A stretch of DNA of 63,788 nt, counting the filler, from Stramenopiles sp. TOSAG23-2 (Eukaryota), in NCBI GenBank assembly GCA_900128395.1. It is 9 parts of 9 records of this genome, joined end to end, with 100 filler letters (N's around TTAATTAATTAA, not from the genome) between each part and the next. Parts side by side here need not be neighbours in the genome. Positions count along the whole stretch, not along the records: positions 26,250 to 52,354 come from LT649442.1; 8 more parts are not named here. One strand, 5' to 3'. Below are positions 3,885-58,889 of the stretch, in pieces. A program made the position numbers and the translations under genes. The notes below the pieces were generated by a model that was not told the DNA's origin, did no database searches, and was given only the letters and a program-made list of their open reading frames with translations. Within the stretch, counting starts at the first letter, position 1; each line of letters begins with the position of its first letter.

Positions 3885-5444
3885 CTAGATTTTAATCTTT
3901 CGTTTGTATAATAAAGAGTGTTGATAATTTTTATAAAAATCAGAATGAATTAATTCATCATTGTATTGTTGTAATATTAAATCAGTAGTCCATTTTCGCC
4001 CTGTATCTAAAATTGCCAATCTTGTAAAATTGCTACCAGTTAATAAATCTATGAAATTATTATCAAGAAAATAAAAATCTACAACCTCTTTACTTTTACT
4101 TTCAGCATTGTCATCATTGACAATCATTTTTTCTTCGAATTTCATTGCCAAATTACTACTTGTCTTTTTCCCAGCCATTGATTGTGCTAAAAATAAAATA
4201 TCCAAAACTAAACGAAATGGATCAAAACAATTTGGATCTGTTACGTATATATCAATGCCATTCGAAATATTACCTTGAAATTTGCTAAATGTTGGTGTAA
4301 AATATGCATCTCGTATTGCTATTCCACAATAGTTATTATCGGTATTTTGGATTAAAGATTTCAAATGTTGTGAAAAAGTATAATTTAAATAAGGTGCACC
4401 TATTATTTGAAATGGCTTTGTTGTCCCTCTACCTTCACTTAACGTAGTACCTTCTAAAAAACATATACCTGGATATGCAAATGCAGTTTCTATTGTAGGC
4501 ATATTGGGCGATGGTAAAACAAATGGAATTTCAGTAATTGGATATGTTTTTTGTACATCCCAATTTGTCATTTGAACCACATATACATTCAAATTATTTT
4601 TCTTCTTATCATTTATGAACCGTTTGTTATTATTATTATTATTATTGTTGTTGTTGTTGTTGTTGTTGTTGTTTTTGTTGTTTTGTCCGATAGTTGAAGT
4701 CGACGACGATGATGATAAAAATGCGGTGGGACATCGATTCATTGCATTTGAATAAAAATACAACGCTAATTCCCCTACAGTCATCCCATGTTGAATTGGT
4801 ATATTGACTTTTCCTACACCTGAAAAATATTGTGAACTTAAAATCATTGGCCCGTGAATTTTTTCACCGCCTAAAGGATTTGGCCGATCAAGTACAATAA
4901 ATTGTATCTTTGATGACACCATAGAAGAAGATGCAGCACACATCATATCATACATAGTCCATATAAAGGTATAAAAACGAGCACCGACATCTTGTATATC
5001 AAAAATAATGGTATCAACTTTAGTAGTTTTAATCATTTGAATTAATTCCGTAGAATTTTTTCCATACGTGTTATAAACTGTTAAGTTTGTTTGTGGATCT
5101 AAATATTTACTTTTTCCACCATGACCAGCCTCAGCTGCACCACGAAATCCGTGTTCAGGTCCAAATACAATTAATTCCTTTACTTTTAAATTACCTTGTA
5201 ACATATCGTCATGCATAACATCAACTATATGATTCAAGGTCTTTGGTAATAAAGACGTTGGATTTGCTATGATTCCGACTGTTTTTGAATTACTCAATTC
5301 ATTATACTTATTATTTACAAAATTTTCAACACCTAATATTATTCTAGCATGCAATGGATGTATGGCAATTGCTATTATTATTATAATCACAGCCACAGTT
5401 TCTACTATCAATATTGACATTCTCACTTTACGATAGGTTGCCAT
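3885..5444 (-). CDS. Exo-beta-N-acetylmuramidase NamZ/YbbC (DUF1343) family, secreted or membrane-anchored
   Basis: Motifs NPTS, FGPEHGFRG, FDIQDVGARFYTF, LDRPNPLGG, HGMTVGELA, PSPNMPT, EGTTLSEGRGTTKPF. N-terminal hydrophobic segment and an internal poly-Asn insertion. Confidence 0.9.
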   Translation of the reverse strand: MATYRKVRMSILIVETVAVIIIIIAIAIHPLHARIILGVENFVNNKYNELSNSKTVGIIANPTSLLPKTLNHIVDVMHDDMLQGNLKVKELIVFGPEHGFRGAAEAGHGGKSKYLDPQTNLTVYNTYGKNSTELIQMIKTTKVDTIIFDIQDVGARFYTFIWTMYDMMCAASSSMVSSKIQFIVLDRPNPLGGEKIHGPMILSSQYFSGVGKVNIPIQHGMTVGELALYFYSNAMNRCPTAFLSSSSSTSTIGQNNKNNNNNNNNNNNNNNNNKRFINDKKKNNLNVYVVQMTNWDVQKTYPITEIPFVLPSPNMPTIETAFAYPGICFLEGTTLSEGRGTTKPFQIIGAPYLNYTFSQHLKSLIQNTDNNYCGIAIRDAYFTPTFSKFQGNISNGIDIYVTDPNCFDPFRLVLDILFLAQSMAGKKTSSNLAMKFEEKMIVNDDNAESKSKEVVDFYFLDNNFIDLLTGSNFTRLAILDTGRKWTTDLILQQYNDELIHSDFYKNYQHSLLYKRKIKI

Positions 5445-46696: not shown

Positions 46697-47432
46697 TCAT
46701 GGCATACACATGTGTGTGTGTATATATATATGGATTGGAAATGTAATTTCAACAGTACTGATAGACAAATACACTATAATATGTATAATACAATGATTTT
46801 GAATGATGTTTTTGAAGTTGTAAAAAGAAATTAACATACACATATGTAAATTTTTAATTTTAAGAATTGATGAGAAAATGAAAAATACACATATTATTGA
46901 AATTATATACGAAGTAATGGTGCTAATGAATATCATATAAACATATAAATATGTATTATATATTATAAGTATAGACCTATGACCCCCGGTTACTCTGATC
47001 AAATTGGGCATTGGGCACCCTTCCATTATGATTATAGGTTATTTTTTTCATGACTTTCAACATTTTTCGTATACTACTTAGCATAGCTTCCTAGTTAATT
47101 GCTCCTTTTTTGAGAAAAAATTATTTTGCACCTTTTTATGGATATTTTTATGTTGATAAATACATGTATGTATGTAAATTGATATTTCAGGAATAGAGGA
47201 GAAGAAGCCGAAAGATTTAGATTCACATGGTCAGAGAGGACATGGTTTGTAAAAAAGTGGGGGGGCATTTCATTCATCATCAGTATTTTTTATTAGCATA
47301 TCGAAAATATAGCAATACACACACACATAGACAAATGTATATGTATACATACAGATACAGAATTTATCTACCATTAACATTCTGATCAAATATTTTAAAA
47401 CAACAAAACAACAGAAAAGGAAAACGTGTTCC

Positions 47433-49856
47433 ATGTCTCCCATCACTATGTCTTCATCCTCCACTGTTATATTTCATCGTCACCAACAATCAACGTTAGT
47501 ATTATTACTATTACTAAGTATATTGTTATATATAAGCCCTATCCATTGTGTTAAACCAAAAGGTGAAAGCAAAGCATTATTAAGAGTTCTAAATGATGTA
47601 GACAATGTATTGAGTAAAGAAACCAAAGTCTTAGAAGAACTTCAAGCTAATCGTTTTAAGGAGAAGAAGTATTATGAAATCGTTGACGGTGATTGTAAAT
47701 GTTCAAACTGGAACCCATTATCAAAATGTGGTGATAATAGTGAGTGTAAGCCAGATGCACAATATAAAAATCCTTGCAAACATACATGCATTTGCGAAGA
47801 AGATTTAGCCAACCCAGAATGTAGATGCGCTAAAGAGGTCCCAAAACCAGCAACGTTTGAAGAAACGTTGAAAGAAAGTGGTGACAAATGTGCAGATTGG
47901 TGTAATTGTATGGCAGATGAACTATTATACGGTTTAACTCACTCTTTGCCATATGACGCAGATGATCATGGCTTATATCACTTTAAAAAAGTTGATAGGA
48001 AAGACTCAGTTTTTAAAATAGATAAAGAAACCAAAAAATGGCAAATATCTTATAGTCATAGGTTTAAAAAAAACAGTAAAAAATTTGTTACTAGTAAGGC
48101 ATTTATTAACATAGATGATGAAGAGAATAAAGGTAAACTGGACAAATTAACAAAGAAAGACTTCGAGGCCAAATTAGCAATTGATTTATTGCAATATTTT
48201 AAAAATCAACCCGATGATAGGCCAACGCATGCAAACCCATTGGAAAGACAACGTAATGAACGATGTAATATTTTAAAGAACCCGAAAGAATGCAAACAAG
48301 ATGAAACGTGTGAATGGCACTTTTTTATGGGTGCTAAACCAACATGCCAAGCAAAAGATCCATGTTTTAAATATGATGACGATGAAGAAGCGTGTAAAGC
48401 TGATGAGTTATGTACAACTGGAACTATAAGGCATGGTCTCAAATTTTACAGTTGTTCCATCGCAAATCCAGCTGATCAACCTCACAACTCCGCAAAAGCC
48501 AGTGAAGATGCTGAAATGTGTTATAAATCGTTAAAAATACCACAATGCAGCTGTAGGAAAACTAAATGTTCCTTAGCACTAGCAAAACGATTTGTAAAAG
48601 TTGCTGATGATATGCGCCGTATGACTACATCAAAGCAAAGTAAGGATTCGTTACTAGATAATTTTCAATTTGCATTGGATATGCTGGGAATGTTGCCGGG
48701 CATAGGCGAAGTTACCGATATTTTGAGTGGGGCTTTATACGGAGCAAGAAAAATGTGGAAAGATATGCTTTTATCATTCATATCACTTATGCCTGGTGTA
48801 GGTCAAATTATAGGGAAATTACGTTTGGCAAGAAAACTGTGTCGTAAATGTTGGGATGGTATTATGTCATCAATCGATTTTGTTTTAAGTTCTGGTATTT
48901 TAATAGATGTATTGAAAGAATTATGGTTGATGGTAAAAAAAGGATTAACTGGAAAAATAAAAAGCATACTCAAATCAATAATAGCATTTGGTAAACGATT
49001 TACCTCTGCAATAATTCATCCAGTCATAATAGCAAATAAAGGTACAATTGCATTTTTAAAAGCTGCAAAAAACAAAAACGTGAAAGGTGGTGAAGAAAAA
49101 GCTATAATAGATTATACAGCAGATATTATTTTAAAAATGGCTGAAAATAAAAATTGTAATGTAAACCGATTTCAAGTAGAGCTTCTAGAACTTGTACAGC
49201 AAGTTTTACCAAATTTAAATAGTGTAGCAAAAAAGTTTGATCAAGATCATTTAATCCCTGCAGGCAGTTTTTTAGCAGCTATATATCCATGCATATTGCA
49301 TTTAGAACATATAAAAAAAGAAGATTGTAAAGTAGCTCAAGAAAATATTGTCAAAGGAAGAGAAGCTCTCGTTAATCGAATACCTGGTTTAAGACAATGT
49401 TTAGTTGGTAAAGTTTCTACTTTGCATGATCATATAAGTGGTAAATTTGATGCAAATCAAGTTAAAATTAATCCAATGGATGAAAAATGTGATGATCAGG
49501 AAGGAACAGAGGATAGCGATTGTTTGCATAATGTAAATGGAAAATGCACAGTCACCGCTGCATGTCCTGGAGCGCAACGTGCCCCAGGTCATTGTTCAGA
49601 GGATGGTATTATTTGTTGTTTACATCCACCGAAAAAAGAACCAGATAATAATAGTAGTTTTATTGAATTGCAAGAAACTTCCACAACAATTTACAATAAC
49701 GTTGATAAAAAGAATTTAGTAAATGAAGCACACGAAGCTATGTTTGATTTGTTTGACAATACTGTTGATGATATGATTGCAATAGATAATTCAAAAAGTA
49801 GATATGAACATAGCTTAGAATTATTGGAAATAATGAGTGCAAATAGAGAAAAATAG
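47433..49856 (+). CDS. Secreted Cys-rich multidomain protein with a central PT-TG-like hydrophobic segment
   Basis: Signal peptide (LVLLLLLSILLYISPIHC). Several Cys clusters. ALDMLGMLPGIGEVTDILSGALY...LLSFISLMPGVG. C-terminal C...CPG....GHC.....ICC module. Confidence 0.8.
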   Translation: MSPITMSSSSTVIFHRHQQSTLVLLLLLSILLYISPIHCVKPKGESKALLRVLNDVDNVLSKETKVLEELQANRFKEKKYYEIVDGDCKCSNWNPLSKCGDNSECKPDAQYKNPCKHTCICEEDLANPECRCAKEVPKPATFEETLKESGDKCADWCNCMADELLYGLTHSLPYDADDHGLYHFKKVDRKDSVFKIDKETKKWQISYSHRFKKNSKKFVTSKAFINIDDEENKGKLDKLTKKDFEAKLAIDLLQYFKNQPDDRPTHANPLERQRNERCNILKNPKECKQDETCEWHFFMGAKPTCQAKDPCFKYDDDEEACKADELCTTGTIRHGLKFYSCSIANPADQPHNSAKASEDAEMCYKSLKIPQCSCRKTKCSLALAKRFVKVADDMRRMTTSKQSKDSLLDNFQFALDMLGMLPGIGEVTDILSGALYGARKMWKDMLLSFISLMPGVGQIIGKLRLARKLCRKCWDGIMSSIDFVLSSGILIDVLKELWLMVKKGLTGKIKSILKSIIAFGKRFTSAIIHPVIIANKGTIAFLKAAKNKNVKGGEEKAIIDYTADIILKMAENKNCNVNRFQVELLELVQQVLPNLNSVAKKFDQDHLIPAGSFLAAIYPCILHLEHIKKEDCKVAQENIVKGREALVNRIPGLRQCLVGKVSTLHDHISGKFDANQVKINPMDEKCDDQEGTEDSDCLHNVNGKCTVTAACPGAQRAPGHCSEDGIICCLHPPKKEPDNNSSFIELQETSTTIYNNVDKKNLVNEAHEAMFDLFDNTVDDMIAIDNSKSRYEHSLELLEIMSANREK

Positions 49857-50020
49857 TAGAGTCGGAAGAGAAAATTGGGAAACAAGGGGTGTGTGCTGAG
49901 GTTTTTTTAATATTACAAATGTAGAACACAAGATTTTTTCTTTAATATTTACGAAGTAAAAATAAAAAATGACATTAATTTAACAAAAAATAACTGGTAT
50001 AATATTTTTTCCTGCTTTTT

Positions 50021-51305
50021 TTACTCTTTAAAACCACCACCACCACCACCACCTTTACGCATGTTGTTAAAATCTTTTCGAAATTTCATATCACCACCAC
50101 CTCCACCACCATGAATTGTATTTCTAACATGTGCTTTTCCCAATGCTGTTAATACACTAGCACTTGTTTGAGCCATTTGCATTGGATTTATACCATTATT
50201 ATTATTTTTACTATTTATCAACAGAGTACTACCAGTGGTACCAAAATTAGGATATGCGCGCGTTGGAGATGGTGTATTGATTGTATTATTTAAATCATTT
50301 TTTTTCGGTGTTGATTGACTAATATTTAAATAATCAAAATCATCTTCCACATCATGATTGCCATAATATAAATTAGCAGCTTTATCATCATCATTATTAT
50401 TAATATTATTACTGCCAATAACTTCTCTTAATTTCCCCTCTTCTTGGCAAAATTCTTGAAGCAATTGTACCCTTGCGTTTGACCATTGTCGACGATTATC
50501 ACGTTCTGATTCAAGGGCATTTTCTAAATGTGAGATTCGCTCTAATAATTCTTTTCGACTTTTAGCTTCTCTATCTTCCACTTCTCGTGTTCTTACTTGC
50601 AATACTTCCCCTAATACTCGCAATTCGCCTAATGTACGATGTGAACTTTCTAATTCAGCCCTTAAGACACCTGTAATAAATAGTTTACATGTGTTTTATA
50701 TTATAAATATATACCATATTACAATAAATATATATATCATATTATTTATTTATTTTTTTGTTGAATATTCATAATGTTAGAAATATATTAATGTATATAT
50801 ATATATATAATGGGTGGGTAGAGATATACATACGAATTTCTTGTTCTGAATCTTCCATTACTTTTTCTGCATGTTCTCTTTTCTGTGTTTCACTTTTCAA
50901 TTCATCAACCATATCAATCATTAATTTTCGTTGTTTCTCCATCTCTGTATTTGAAAAATCAATCGTTTCCGATGCATGATTAATTTTCAATTTCAAATCT
51001 TCATTTAATGCTTTCAATGTTTCATTTTCTTTCATTAAATTATTTTTATCCATCTCTAATTTATGAACAATATCAATATATTCATGAGATGATTTCATTA
51101 CTTCTTTTAATTTATTATCACTATCTTGTTTATGATACGTTAATTTTGTTACTTGTTCTTCTTCTCGTTGTTGTTGTTGTGTCATTATCGTCAGTAAGTA
51201 ACGATGCCATTTTAATCTCTTTTTTGTGTTGATAATGTTTGTATTAAATTTTTCTTTCTTTCTTTCTGTTTCTACACGACGACGACTATCTATGTCATCT
51301 ATCAT
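50021..51305 (-). CDS. Coiled-coil protein (2 exons, intron 50671-50833; start 51305 or 51185)
   Basis: Splice C|GTATGT...TTACAG|GT gives EQEIRVLRAELESSHRTLGELRVLGEVLQ in frame. Heptad-rich sequence. Confidence 0.7.
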
Positions 51306-54133: not shown

Positions 54134-55622
54134 TTATGTTTCACCTTTGCCATCTATGTTCTCGTACCATAAGATTTTATTATCAAGACCAGACGCTGAT
54201 ATTAAATCTACATCTCCATCATTATCAATATCTGATGCAATAACGCTTGTAGCTCCATTTGCTTCTATTGTAACCATTTGTTCTGTCCCAAATGTACCTT
54301 TTCCATCTGTATTTTCGTACCATGCAATTTTATTAGCCAATGATACTGCTATTATCAAATCCATATCACCATCATTATCTATATCAGATGCAACGGCTTT
54401 GATAATAAGCAACTGTTGTAAATTATCAGTAATTCGTTGCCTTTGTGCAAACGTACCAGTCCCATTTATGTTCTTATACCATCTGGAATCCAGGTATGAT
54501 GTTGATATTAAATCTACATAACCATCATTATCTATATCTGATGCAATTATGCTAAAATACCCACCTATCCCACCCTGGGGTAAAGAAGTTGCAACTACTT
54601 GTTGTGGTCCAAATGTACCTTTACCATCTATATTCTCATACCATGCAATTTTATAATCATACACAGATGTTGATATTAAATCTATATCTCCATCATTATC
54701 GACATCTGATGCAAATATATTACTGGCGCCATTTGCATCTGTTGTGACATTTTGTTGTGGTCCAAATGTACCTTTACCATCTATATTCTCATACCACGCA
54801 ACTTTATTATCACCAAAAGATGTTGATGCTAAATCCATATCGCCGTCGTTATCAATATCAGATGCAAATATGCCTGTATTACTACCTGATATCCAACCTT
54901 CGGATGGACCCATAGCATCTCTTGTAACAATCTGTTGCGGTCCAAATATACCTTTACCATCTATGTTCTCATACCACATAAGTTTATTATCAGTGAATGA
55001 TGCTGCTATCAAATCATTATCACCATCATTATCTACATCAGAAGCAATTATGTTTACAACTTGTGTTGTCTCTGTTGCAACAATCTGTGCCGACCCAAAG
55101 GCATATTTAATAGCAGTATTTTCATACCATGCAATTTTATCATCAGAAGATGATGCTGATACTAAATCCATTTTCCCATTATTATCTATGTCAGATGCAA
55201 TTATATTACGGGGACTCATCACACTGGTTGTAACAATCTCCTGCGGTCCAAATGCACCCTTACCATCCGTGTTCTCATACCATGCGATTATACCGGTTCC
55301 TCCAGTATCATATGTACTTTCCACTGCATCAATATAAGATGCTGATGCTATATCAATATCTCCATCATTATCCATATCAGATGCGAGCACACTTCGAGCA
55401 CCGTTTGCATTTGCTGTAACTATTTGTTGTGGTCCGAACGTACCTTTACCATCTATGTTCTCATACCATGCAATTGTAGAAGATGCTGATATTAAATCAA
55501 TATCACCATCCTTATCAATATCAATTGCAAATACACTTCGAGCATCAACCGCATCTGTTGTAACTATTTGTTGTGGTCCAAATGTACCTTTACCATCTAT
55601 ATTCTCATACCATGCAATTTTA
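54134..55622 (-). CDS. FG-GAP/VCBS repeat beta-propeller protein (partial, open at contig edge)
   Basis: About nine repeats of ASDIDNDGD.DL.SAS..D.KIAWYEN.DGKG.FG.QQ. The frame stays open up to 55622. Confidence 0.88.
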
Positions 55623-57964: not shown

Positions 57965-58889
57965 TTAATGATACTCACAAGCATCTTTATCTGCTTTGCA
58001 CTCCCCATTTACATATTTCACTGCTTTATCCTCACTTTGTCGAAGATTCAATTGAAGTTTATGTGCACGTCGACCTCTTGTAATTGTTTTATCAAACAAT
58101 CGGATATCATTTGGTATATCTAAATGTTTCTCATTTGGATCGATTAATTTTGATTTACCAGCCATTGCAGGATCCGTGATCGTTTGTTGCCCTGTTTCCA
58201 TTTTACCCATAAAAGTTCTTGCAAATGTATTCATATTGCTATTGCTGGTACACGTAGTTGTCGTTTCAACTGTGAAATCATACCAATTTCCACTTGATGC
58301 AATATTAATAGTTTGTGATAATATTATTTTATCTGGATTTAATTTCCATGGTCCACCTAAATGATATGCATTGTCAATAATTTCAGTTGAAAATGTACAA
58401 TCATCATTATTATCGTTACTACTAGGTGGCGATGCCGTAAATATCATATTTTGACCATTTGTATCTTCTTTCATTGCAATATCAATCATCCTGCCTCTAT
58501 TACCCTCATCAACATTATTATTATGATGATTCAAACCACCTTGGTACAAACGTACAAAACCATTTGGTCCATATAATCCTAAATCAAATCCCCCATTTTT
58601 AGCACCATCATCTACTACCATCTTCCATGTATCATTTAATTCTTTCCCTGCTTCAATACTATATTTTTTCGGAGGATCCATTCCCTTGCCATCACTTGTA
58701 GAGTAATCATATACATGAAATACCACACCTGCAGTGCCAATATTTTTCATAGTTAATGTCAATGATTTACCATCCGATGAAAATGAATCTTGAATATCAA
58801 ATTGATAAGGCAATGGACGTGCCACTTTCGTACCTTCCTCTTGACTTGGCATCGATTGTTGTATTGGTACACGTGGACTTGGTAAATCT
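57965..58889 (-). CDS. C-terminal part of a bacterial-type phosphocholine phospholipase C (PlcN/PlcH-like, tandem DUF756 domains)
   Basis: PSQEEGTKVARPLPY, GVVFHVYD, YSIEAGKELNDTW, FDLGLYGPNGFVR, SSGNWYDFTV, FARTFMGKMETG..TITDPAM. The 5' end is cut by the contig edge. Confidence 0.85.

Follow-up and report, generated by a model that had tools for sequence, protein, structure and literature searches.

A candidate pre-toxin module of bacterial polymorphic toxins in a secreted-looking eukaryotic protein family

Introduction

What is a segment resembling a part of bacterial polymorphic toxins doing in the middle of a protein encoded by a eukaryote? This question is raised by a gene of Stramenopiles sp. 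TOSAG23-2 (assembly GCA_900128395.1), located at 47433..49856 (+) in a 63,788-nucleotide stretch of DNA, hereafter the window, which joins nine parts of nine genome records with filler between them; the gene lies in the part taken from LT649442.1 (positions 26,250 to 52,354). It encodes a protein of 807 amino acids (aa), P0001. A previous reading of this DNA, made from the sequence alone (the sequence-only reading), had described P0001 as a secreted protein carrying the pre-toxin domain PT-TG (PF14449) between cysteine-rich modules, and had proposed that it acts as a toxin or membrane-inserting effector against prey. Our analysis indicates that the segment is very probably homologous to a ~65-residue helical module that precedes toxin or HINT domains in polymorphic toxins of type VI secretion systems (T6SS), Rhs systems and type VII secretion systems (T7SS). 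By our profile and signature comparisons, this module is not PT-TG.

A helical module shared with bacterial polymorphic toxins

A phmmer search with P0001 against 1.84 billion representative proteins retrieved 147 proteins at E<=1e-3. About 134 of them, by our own count from the result table, match P0001 only within residues ~400-470; for almost every match, local re-alignment gave an independent E-value in the range of about 1e-16 to 1e-9. Against a profile built from 22 bacterial sequences, P0001 reaches 88.1 bits (E 2.4e-20 with Z = 1.84e9, bias 0.0) over residues 396-472 (48618..48848, +), a score that is not fully independent, the 22 members having first been found via P0001. With this profile, the 15 eukaryotic members of the family all score between 38 and 88 bits, versus 9.5 bits for the best of 1500 shuffled eukaryotic homologues. 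A separate tblastn search of plasmids with the protist segment led to a Vibrio gene annotated 'RHS repeat-associated core' (E 1e-5) and to Streptomyces genes annotated 'polymorphic toxin-type HINT'. A word-indexed protein search with the module profile returned only 7 short and 23 longer proteins.

The module, defined here by alignments A2 and A3, has the consensus LD..Q..LD..G.iPG.G...D..N......RG.W.dA.lS....iP..G, in which ten columns, distributed over 45 residues, are invariant or nearly so among 34 sequences. P0001 keeps the invariant G425, D429, P454 and G457 as well as the near-invariant L415, D416, G419, R439 and S448; its only departure is at the near-invariant N column, where it has S432. 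The peptide that had drawn attention to the locus (LLDNFQ...IIGKL, residues 407-463, nucleotides 48651-48821) lies entirely within the module. The suggestion of a pre-toxin-type helical region held, insofar as this region is homologous to a module found directly upstream of toxin and HINT domains in bacterial polymorphic toxins. Modelled alone with AlphaFold2 (34 rows), the module reaches a predicted local distance difference test score (pLDDT) of 57.5, and 45-59 within the model of the whole protein, low values that are consistent with flexibility.

The module has no name in Pfam, NCBIfam or PHROGs, and neither a description of it nor any experiment on it was found in the portions of the literature searched on PT-TG, pre-toxin and DUF4280. 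Within the libraries and the parts of the literature covered, a family without a name whose members extend over T6SS, T7SS, Rhs and DUF4157 proteins would appear to be new.

Position of the module in bacterial carriers

We scanned 143 family members (66 + 22 + 55). In the carriers that could be annotated with Pfam, the module is invariably preceded by a delivery part and followed by a PT-HINT or toxin domain, the reverse order occurring in no case, and this fixed slot supports its designation as a pre-toxin module of bacterial polymorphic toxins. The N-terminal delivery part is a PAAR-like DUF4280 domain in 24 proteins and Rhs repeats or an Rhs core in P0045, P0046, P0090 and P0205; P0196 is a VgrG fusion, P0115 carries WXG100, and P0206 and P0208 carry DUF4157. 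In the Rhs-type matches, the module begins ~20 residues past the DPxGL motif. On the C-terminal side, a PT-HINT or Hint domain is present in 6 proteins and a toxin domain, mostly a nuclease, in 17, with Ntox46 (five proteins) and GIY-YIG (three proteins) being joined by single occurrences of GH-E, AHH, Endonuclea_NS_2, Tox-URI2, Tox-REase-9, NucA/NucB, Ntox8 and Ntox35. The 12 DUF4280 effectors that we aligned share a constant succession of DUF4280 and module, followed by unrelated C-termini. Genes of this DUF4280-module type occur mainly in gut Bacteroidales, and one of them adjoins a TssC-Hcp-Hcp-VgrG cluster. At the Bacteroides T6SS locus L025 (4989-5885), the DUF4280 open reading frame (ORF) ends after 162 aa and is followed by a separate ORF of 113 aa, so that this effector may be split or broken.

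Some members of the module family have other layouts. P0042, P0073, P0080, P0083, P0085, P0101, P0106, P0122, P0134, P0140 and P0141 form a family of Lys/Asn-rich proteins of 595-690 aa, in which the module, located at about residues 40-270, is followed by ~400 residues without a family match in Pfam, NCBIfam or PHROGs; MNI[ND]KIIREEIQK is the N-terminus of three of the six sequences fetched. In the module tree described below, eight Lys/Asn-rich rows share a clade (SH-aLRT 94) with two bacterial rows. P0025 and P0028 contain two tandem copies of the module, ~200-260 residues apart, and no recognised toxin domain.

The module is distinct from PT-TG

The identification of the segment as PT-TG was not supported by profile and signature tests. 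PF14449 (threshold 23.5 bits) has no match at E<=10 on the whole of P0001, on a 100-aa piece or on a 299-aa piece; it matches none of the 143 family members, versus all seven genuine PT-TG segments used as controls (best E 8.9e-23), and has no match in two genomes carrying module toxins (G001 and G002). These controls were obtained from a Bacillus record (59.5 bits with PF14449), from which tblastn led to 104 plasmid records, many of them annotated 'pre-toxin TG domain-containing protein' or 'T7SS effector LXG polymorphic toxin'; no genuine PT-TG above the cut-off was present in the 201 and 301 genomes sampled around a Bacilli metagenome-assembled genome. When the 34-row module alignment was compared by hhalign with the seven PT-TG sequences, it gave a probability of 5.3%, and of 0.7% with a single one, and the bacterial module profile gives a genuine PT-TG protein 1.1 bits. 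The signature shared by the seven genuine members, GE..G.YD..R...G.DP.TGEK....R...G....G..P.G, is absent from residues 396-472 of P0001. An ESM Atlas query, in which the nearest named clusters were PT-TG (0.91; 15 of 30 matches), was not confirmed by the profile tests. Because the Pfam, hhalign, profile-score and signature tests all failed, we consider on these sequence comparisons that the module is not PT-TG.

A eukaryotic protein family built around the module

Outside the module, P0001 has relatives of eukaryotic type only. The closest one, P0003, is a full-length orthologue with 36% identity, and more distant members show 17-39% identity. These proteins come from a marine eukaryote transcriptome set and EukProt (one member each) and from JGI and NCBI records, and are encoded by both GC-rich and AT-rich genomes of several lineages. 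An alignment of 12 eukaryotic members (A1) defines a common core consisting of a leader, the motif C.CMA.ELL, three invariant Cys, the module, basic helices and the motif G.[FW]..A..PC, with the module being the best-conserved element of the family. The sequence-only reading had suggested looking for relatives with a constant module and variable flanks; among the eukaryotic relatives, the outer N- and C-terminal parts do vary around a constant core, but the region immediately after the module is conserved. P0029, which belongs to the other subgroup, carries the same assembly prefix as a near-identical copy of the query, so that two old paralogues coexist.

A quick tree of the module was computed from 62 rows (14 eukaryotic, 8 Lys/Asn-rich and 40 hand-picked from ~130 bacterial rows) and 85 columns. 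A branch with an SH-aLRT of 90 separates the eukaryotic rows from the rest, except for one long-branch bacterial row, P0040, which is placed among them. A single eukaryotic origin is not rejected by the approximately unbiased (AU) test (p 0.81), a test that is weak with 85 columns; the module was thus possibly acquired only once by eukaryotes. The eukaryotic take-over of parts of polymorphic toxins is documented for toxin domains, immunity domains, HINT and ZU5, and in teneurins (excerpts of PMC3482391), and, within the portions of the literature searched, a secreted protist family whose conserved core is a pre-toxin module would appear to be new.

Architecture of P0001

The protein starts with a predicted signal peptide (47433..47549, +; residues ~1-39, hydrophobic core LVLLLLLSILLYISPIHC), as judged from hydropathy. 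This leader is the sole stretch of P0001 with a Kyte-Doolittle mean over 19 residues (KD19) greater than 2.0, no transmembrane segment being detected by hydropathy beyond it, and a hydrophobic N-terminal leader is also present in the homologues P0003, P0009, P0030 and P0185. The earlier description of a secreted eukaryotic protein is supported insofar as P0001 has the look of one.

The placement of the segment between Cys-rich stretches was likewise correct, with 9 Cys (residues 41-140) and 12 Cys (residues 263-380) on its N-terminal side and seven (residues 686-729) on its C-terminal side. The N-terminal Cys-rich module (47688..47837, +; residues 86-135, delimited by its Cys positions) contains the 9 Cys found in residues 41-140, all of which are kept in the 36%-identical orthologue P0003, and has no match in a Pfam search. 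It is followed by a family-specific alpha+beta domain (47853..48218, +; residues 141-262) with the motif C.CMADELLYG.T..PY, kept across the eukaryotic family, which is modelled with a pLDDT mostly of 57-82 and has no match in Pfam or the Protein Data Bank (PDB). The middle Cys-rich region (48258..48572, +; residues 276-380, 12 Cys) ends with a part, C..C.C.K..C, that is invariant in the family, C363, C372 and C379 being invariant in A1; its residues 276-350 are an insertion confined to the query-type subgroup (P0001, P0003, P0009 and P0012).

Downstream of the module, a basic helical region (48837..49112, +; residues 469-560, net charge +9) forms long helices in the AlphaFold2 model and is kept among eukaryotic relatives only. 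The basic amphipathic helices announced by the sequence-only reading are thus basic and helical, but their amphipathicity does not exceed that of shuffled sequences. Next comes a helical domain (49113..49472, +; residues 561-680), marked by the family motif G.[FW]..A..PC and conserved in A1, which has a pLDDT of 55-84 and whose fold matches are limited to generic helical proteins (Z<=5.9). It precedes a seven-Cys module, C-x10-C-x7-C-x5-C-x9-C-x6-CC (49488..49619, +; residues 686-729, as defined by its Cys positions), which ends with GHCSEDGIICC. This small module had been described as C-terminal; it is indeed present, but does not form the terminus, since an acidic helical tail (49638..49853, +; residues 736-807, net charge -10, helices at 742-806) lies beyond it. 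The seven-Cys module is kept in P0003 and P0005 and modelled with a confidence below 35; among the 12 aligned members only P0001 and P0003 have it at the C-terminal position, and in P0030 it lies elsewhere in the sequence. An ESM Atlas query with it gave no usable match. The acidic tail is kept in P0003, P0009 and P0005. Taken over larger parts, residues 401-560 have a net charge of +12 and the acidic C-terminal part a net charge of -15.

The AlphaFold2 model of the whole protein, computed from a 12-row alignment, has a mean pLDDT of 51.8 and is too poor for claims on the fold of the module or of the Cys modules. Neither the protein nor the module profile retrieved anything meaningful in sequence searches of the PDB. 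Likewise, no Pfam family matched the whole protein or the 100-aa piece at E<=10, and the matches of the other pieces were sub-threshold noise.

Gene, genomic context and RNA libraries

The gene of P0001 is a single ORF of 807 codons plus stop (47433-49856, +), intronless and without interruption. It lies in a window with an even GC content of about 30-35%, in which the long ORFs include typical eukaryotic genes (kinesin motor, protein kinase, ankyrin, IQ and EF-hand proteins) and some of bacterial type, and a Pfam scan of the window ORFs places genes of eukaryotic type on both sides of it. The stretch is present in 16 runs recorded as RNA (rows from 8 studies), labelled marine or seawater metagenome and mostly derived from poly(A) or oligo-dT libraries. 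In four RNA runs from four studies (poly(A), oligo-dT or cDNA), contigs cover positions 47367-49911 colinearly and without joints; no contig covers 47000-47332 and little or nothing is covered past ~49911, a pattern that is uninformative on transcript ends. All four contig sets read T instead of G at position 49856, which changes the stop codon into Tyr and yields a protein of 808 aa, the form seen as P0002; the 808-aa form is therefore the common form of the protein.

Several other ORFs of the window deserve mention. The two next ORFs downstream, at 50021-50623(-) and 50769-51305(-), are low-complexity or coiled-coil-like with Asn and Gly runs; neither has a Pfam family and nothing ties either of them to the gene of P0001. 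A protein with a seven-fold FG-GAP_3 repeat of bacterial type is encoded at 54134-55390(-), and a bacterial phospholipase C C-terminal domain (E 1.6e-22) at 57965-58852(-). In a eukaryotic context, the ORF at 3885-5444(-) matches the bacterial exo-beta-N-acetylmuramidase NamZ in its N- and C-terminal domains (E 2e-61 and 3.5e-31). Such a peptidoglycan-degrading enzyme would suit a bacterivore, and its gene may have been acquired by transfer.

Possible function and alternative explanations

Our best explanation as a whole, to which we give roughly even chances, is that the product of an expressed, intronless gene in an AT-rich marine protist is a secreted protein with several modules, one of a family confined to eukaryotes, and that this protein would use a module homologous to bacterial pre-toxin modules to act on a membrane as an effector. 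The mechanism by which the module would engage a membrane is more tentative, and we consider it somewhat less probable than the explanation as a whole. The module can be read as a device engaging an envelope or membrane because in bacteria it precedes toxins that mostly act in the cytoplasm, forms the beginning of the Rhs fragment that is released, and is modelled as flexible helices in which P-G turns are conserved. It could be a conformationally flexible helix-turn-helix-turn unit that engages the target membrane or a component of the envelope and helps whatever follows to get in. In the protist protein, the leader would route the product into the secretory path and the Cys-rich modules would stabilise or target it. 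The module and the adjoining cationic helices (together residues 401-560) would have a membrane as their target, with bacterial prey as the most plausible source of that membrane, and the cationic part may be kept masked by the acidic C-terminal part before release.

Several observations weigh against this proposal. The basic region has a hydrophobic moment of 1.77 at best, which is not above that of shuffled sequences (median 1.64, 95th percentile 2.0), and the module is too weakly hydrophobic for a transmembrane hairpin (KD19 maximum 1.46) and includes conserved D, N, R and S residues. Neither Pfam nor the PDB sequence search detected a toxin, pore-former or enzyme domain downstream of the module, and the AlphaFold and Foldseek check that the sequence-only reading had suggested for this part uncovered no toxin-like fold, Foldseek having no hit against the PDB at E<=1e-3 and the best VIA matches (Z 5.9) being generic helical repeats. 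The region after the module is conserved in eukaryotes rather than polymorphic. Furthermore, the bacterial profile partly depends on P0001 itself, the RNA-library contigs attest presence and prove neither transcription nor its level, and no experiment on the module in any organism was found in the sections of the literature covered. Of the trafficking-to-toxin arrangement seen in the bacterial homologues, only a leader is recognisable in P0001, Pfam detecting neither a trafficking domain nor a toxin domain. We also considered and rejected a polymorphic toxin system in the bacterial sense: the part after the module is conserved (G.[FW]..A..PC, basic helices) and matches no toxin family, so that on sequence grounds P0001 is not such a system.

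Among the alternatives, the one that competes most closely with an effector is a non-toxic secreted or surface protein involved in adhesion, recognition or matrix formation, which would reuse a bacterial helical module as teneurins reuse Rhs/YD parts. The many disulfide-type modules, the conserved flanks, the wide and old distribution, the two paralogue groups and the lack of a toxin domain all fit this possibility, as do the documented transfers of HINT, ZU5 and immunity domains to eukaryotes (PMC3482391, in part). However, P0001 has no transmembrane anchor past the leader and no adhesion domain known to Pfam, and its cationic helical centre with an acidic tail would be more like a masked membrane-active protein; we regard a non-toxic role as possible but rather unlikely. 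The divergence of a genuine PT-TG beyond the reach of the Pfam model is far less probable. In its favour, the bacterial carriers place the module in the slot of PT-TG, after the trafficking part and before the HINT or toxin domain (as described in excerpts of PMC3113570), both elements are helical and modelled with low confidence (for PT-TG, excerpts of PMC13483458), the unconfirmed ESM Atlas matches name PT-TG, and hhalign pairs both ends of the module (the d..G start and the ..P.vG end) over 51 columns. Yet the Pfam model that recognises all seven controls finds neither P0001 or its pieces, nor any of the 143 members, nor anything in G001 and G002, and the hhalign, module-profile and signature comparisons agree with this result.

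Two further explanations can hardly be retained. Hydrophobic helices broken by P-G turns could produce a likeness by composition or short motifs, and one motif of 15 columns is indeed common to the unrelated family DUF4112, weak matches to which recur in about a dozen scanned members; but a coincidence of this kind would hardly give 88 bits over 77 residues with a bias of 0.0 (versus <=9.5 bits for shuffles) nor the ten conserved columns across 34 sequences, and the matches are specifically to polymorphic toxins, not to random membrane proteins. It is just as improbable that the gene is bacterial, whether through contamination of the assembly or as a very recent insertion. The window does contain bacterial-type genes (NamZ, phospholipase C C-terminal domain), but the GC content is even, the neighbours on both sides are eukaryotic, the gene is present in contigs of poly(A) and oligo-dT libraries, the parts outside the module have eukaryote-type relatives only, and the eukaryotic modules group together, P0040 being among them, with a single origin compatible with the AU test.

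Returning to the secreted effector, we can also imagine, although this is distinctly less likely than the membrane mechanism itself, that the module is a self-contained entry or translocation device common to the weapons of T6SS, T7SS, Rhs systems and extracellular contractile injection systems, around which a broad array of protists built secreted, disulfide-stabilised antibacterial effectors. If so, eukaryotes would possess in this family their own equivalent of polymorphic toxins, directed at bacterial prey, and an antibacterial role would in any case offer a handle on prey killing by bacterivorous protists, the family being found in marine metatranscriptome libraries. For bacteria, an unnamed and widespread pre-toxin module that recurs across several secretion systems is a candidate for the little-understood step of toxin entry into target cells. 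For eukaryotes, the case indicates that a non-catalytic piece from the delivery side, rather than a toxin or immunity domain, was taken over and became the most conserved part of a secreted family.

Comparison with known systems

The last six Cys of P0001 (C-x7-C-x5-C-x9-C-x6-CC) have a spacing that we take to be close to the beta-defensin pattern. Although this spacing is compatible, the beta-defensin family (PF00711) was rejected because its profile gives 13.2 bits (E 0.09), short of the 21-bit cut-off, and the Cys module differs in having neither a confident model nor an Atlas match. The small membrane proteins of the DUF4112 family (PF13430) share with the module the 15-residue motif G-h-h-P-x-x-G-D/E-x-x-D (hhalign 55.7%); this motif alone aligns, corresponding to 15 columns of a domain of ~105 residues, DUF4112 has two longer hydrophobic stretches, and the Pfam scan of P0001 and its pieces gave no match to PF13430. 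In CdiA-CT, colicins and prePAAR/Rhs effectors, an entry segment located before the nuclease toxin carries the latter across the target membrane. These segments would be functional analogues of the module on the strength of its position, rather than of a likeness in sequence or fold.

PT-TG resembles the module in occupying a slot behind WXG-, LXG- or Rhs-type delivery parts and before HINT or nuclease toxins, and in being short, helical and poorly modelled. It differs by its signature, GE..G.YD..R...DP.TGEK instead of LD..G.iPG.G...D..N......RG.W, by the lack of a profile relationship, and by the fact that the present module is common also in T6SS effectors of Bacteroidales. Finally, the take-overs of conflict-system domains by eukaryotes (PMC3482391) concern, in the parts of that article consulted, toxin, immunity and peptidase domains, and the module is not named there, whereas P0001 carries a pre-toxin module; what the two cases have in common is a module of bacterial conflict systems housed in a eukaryotic secreted protein and fused to eukaryote-specific modules.

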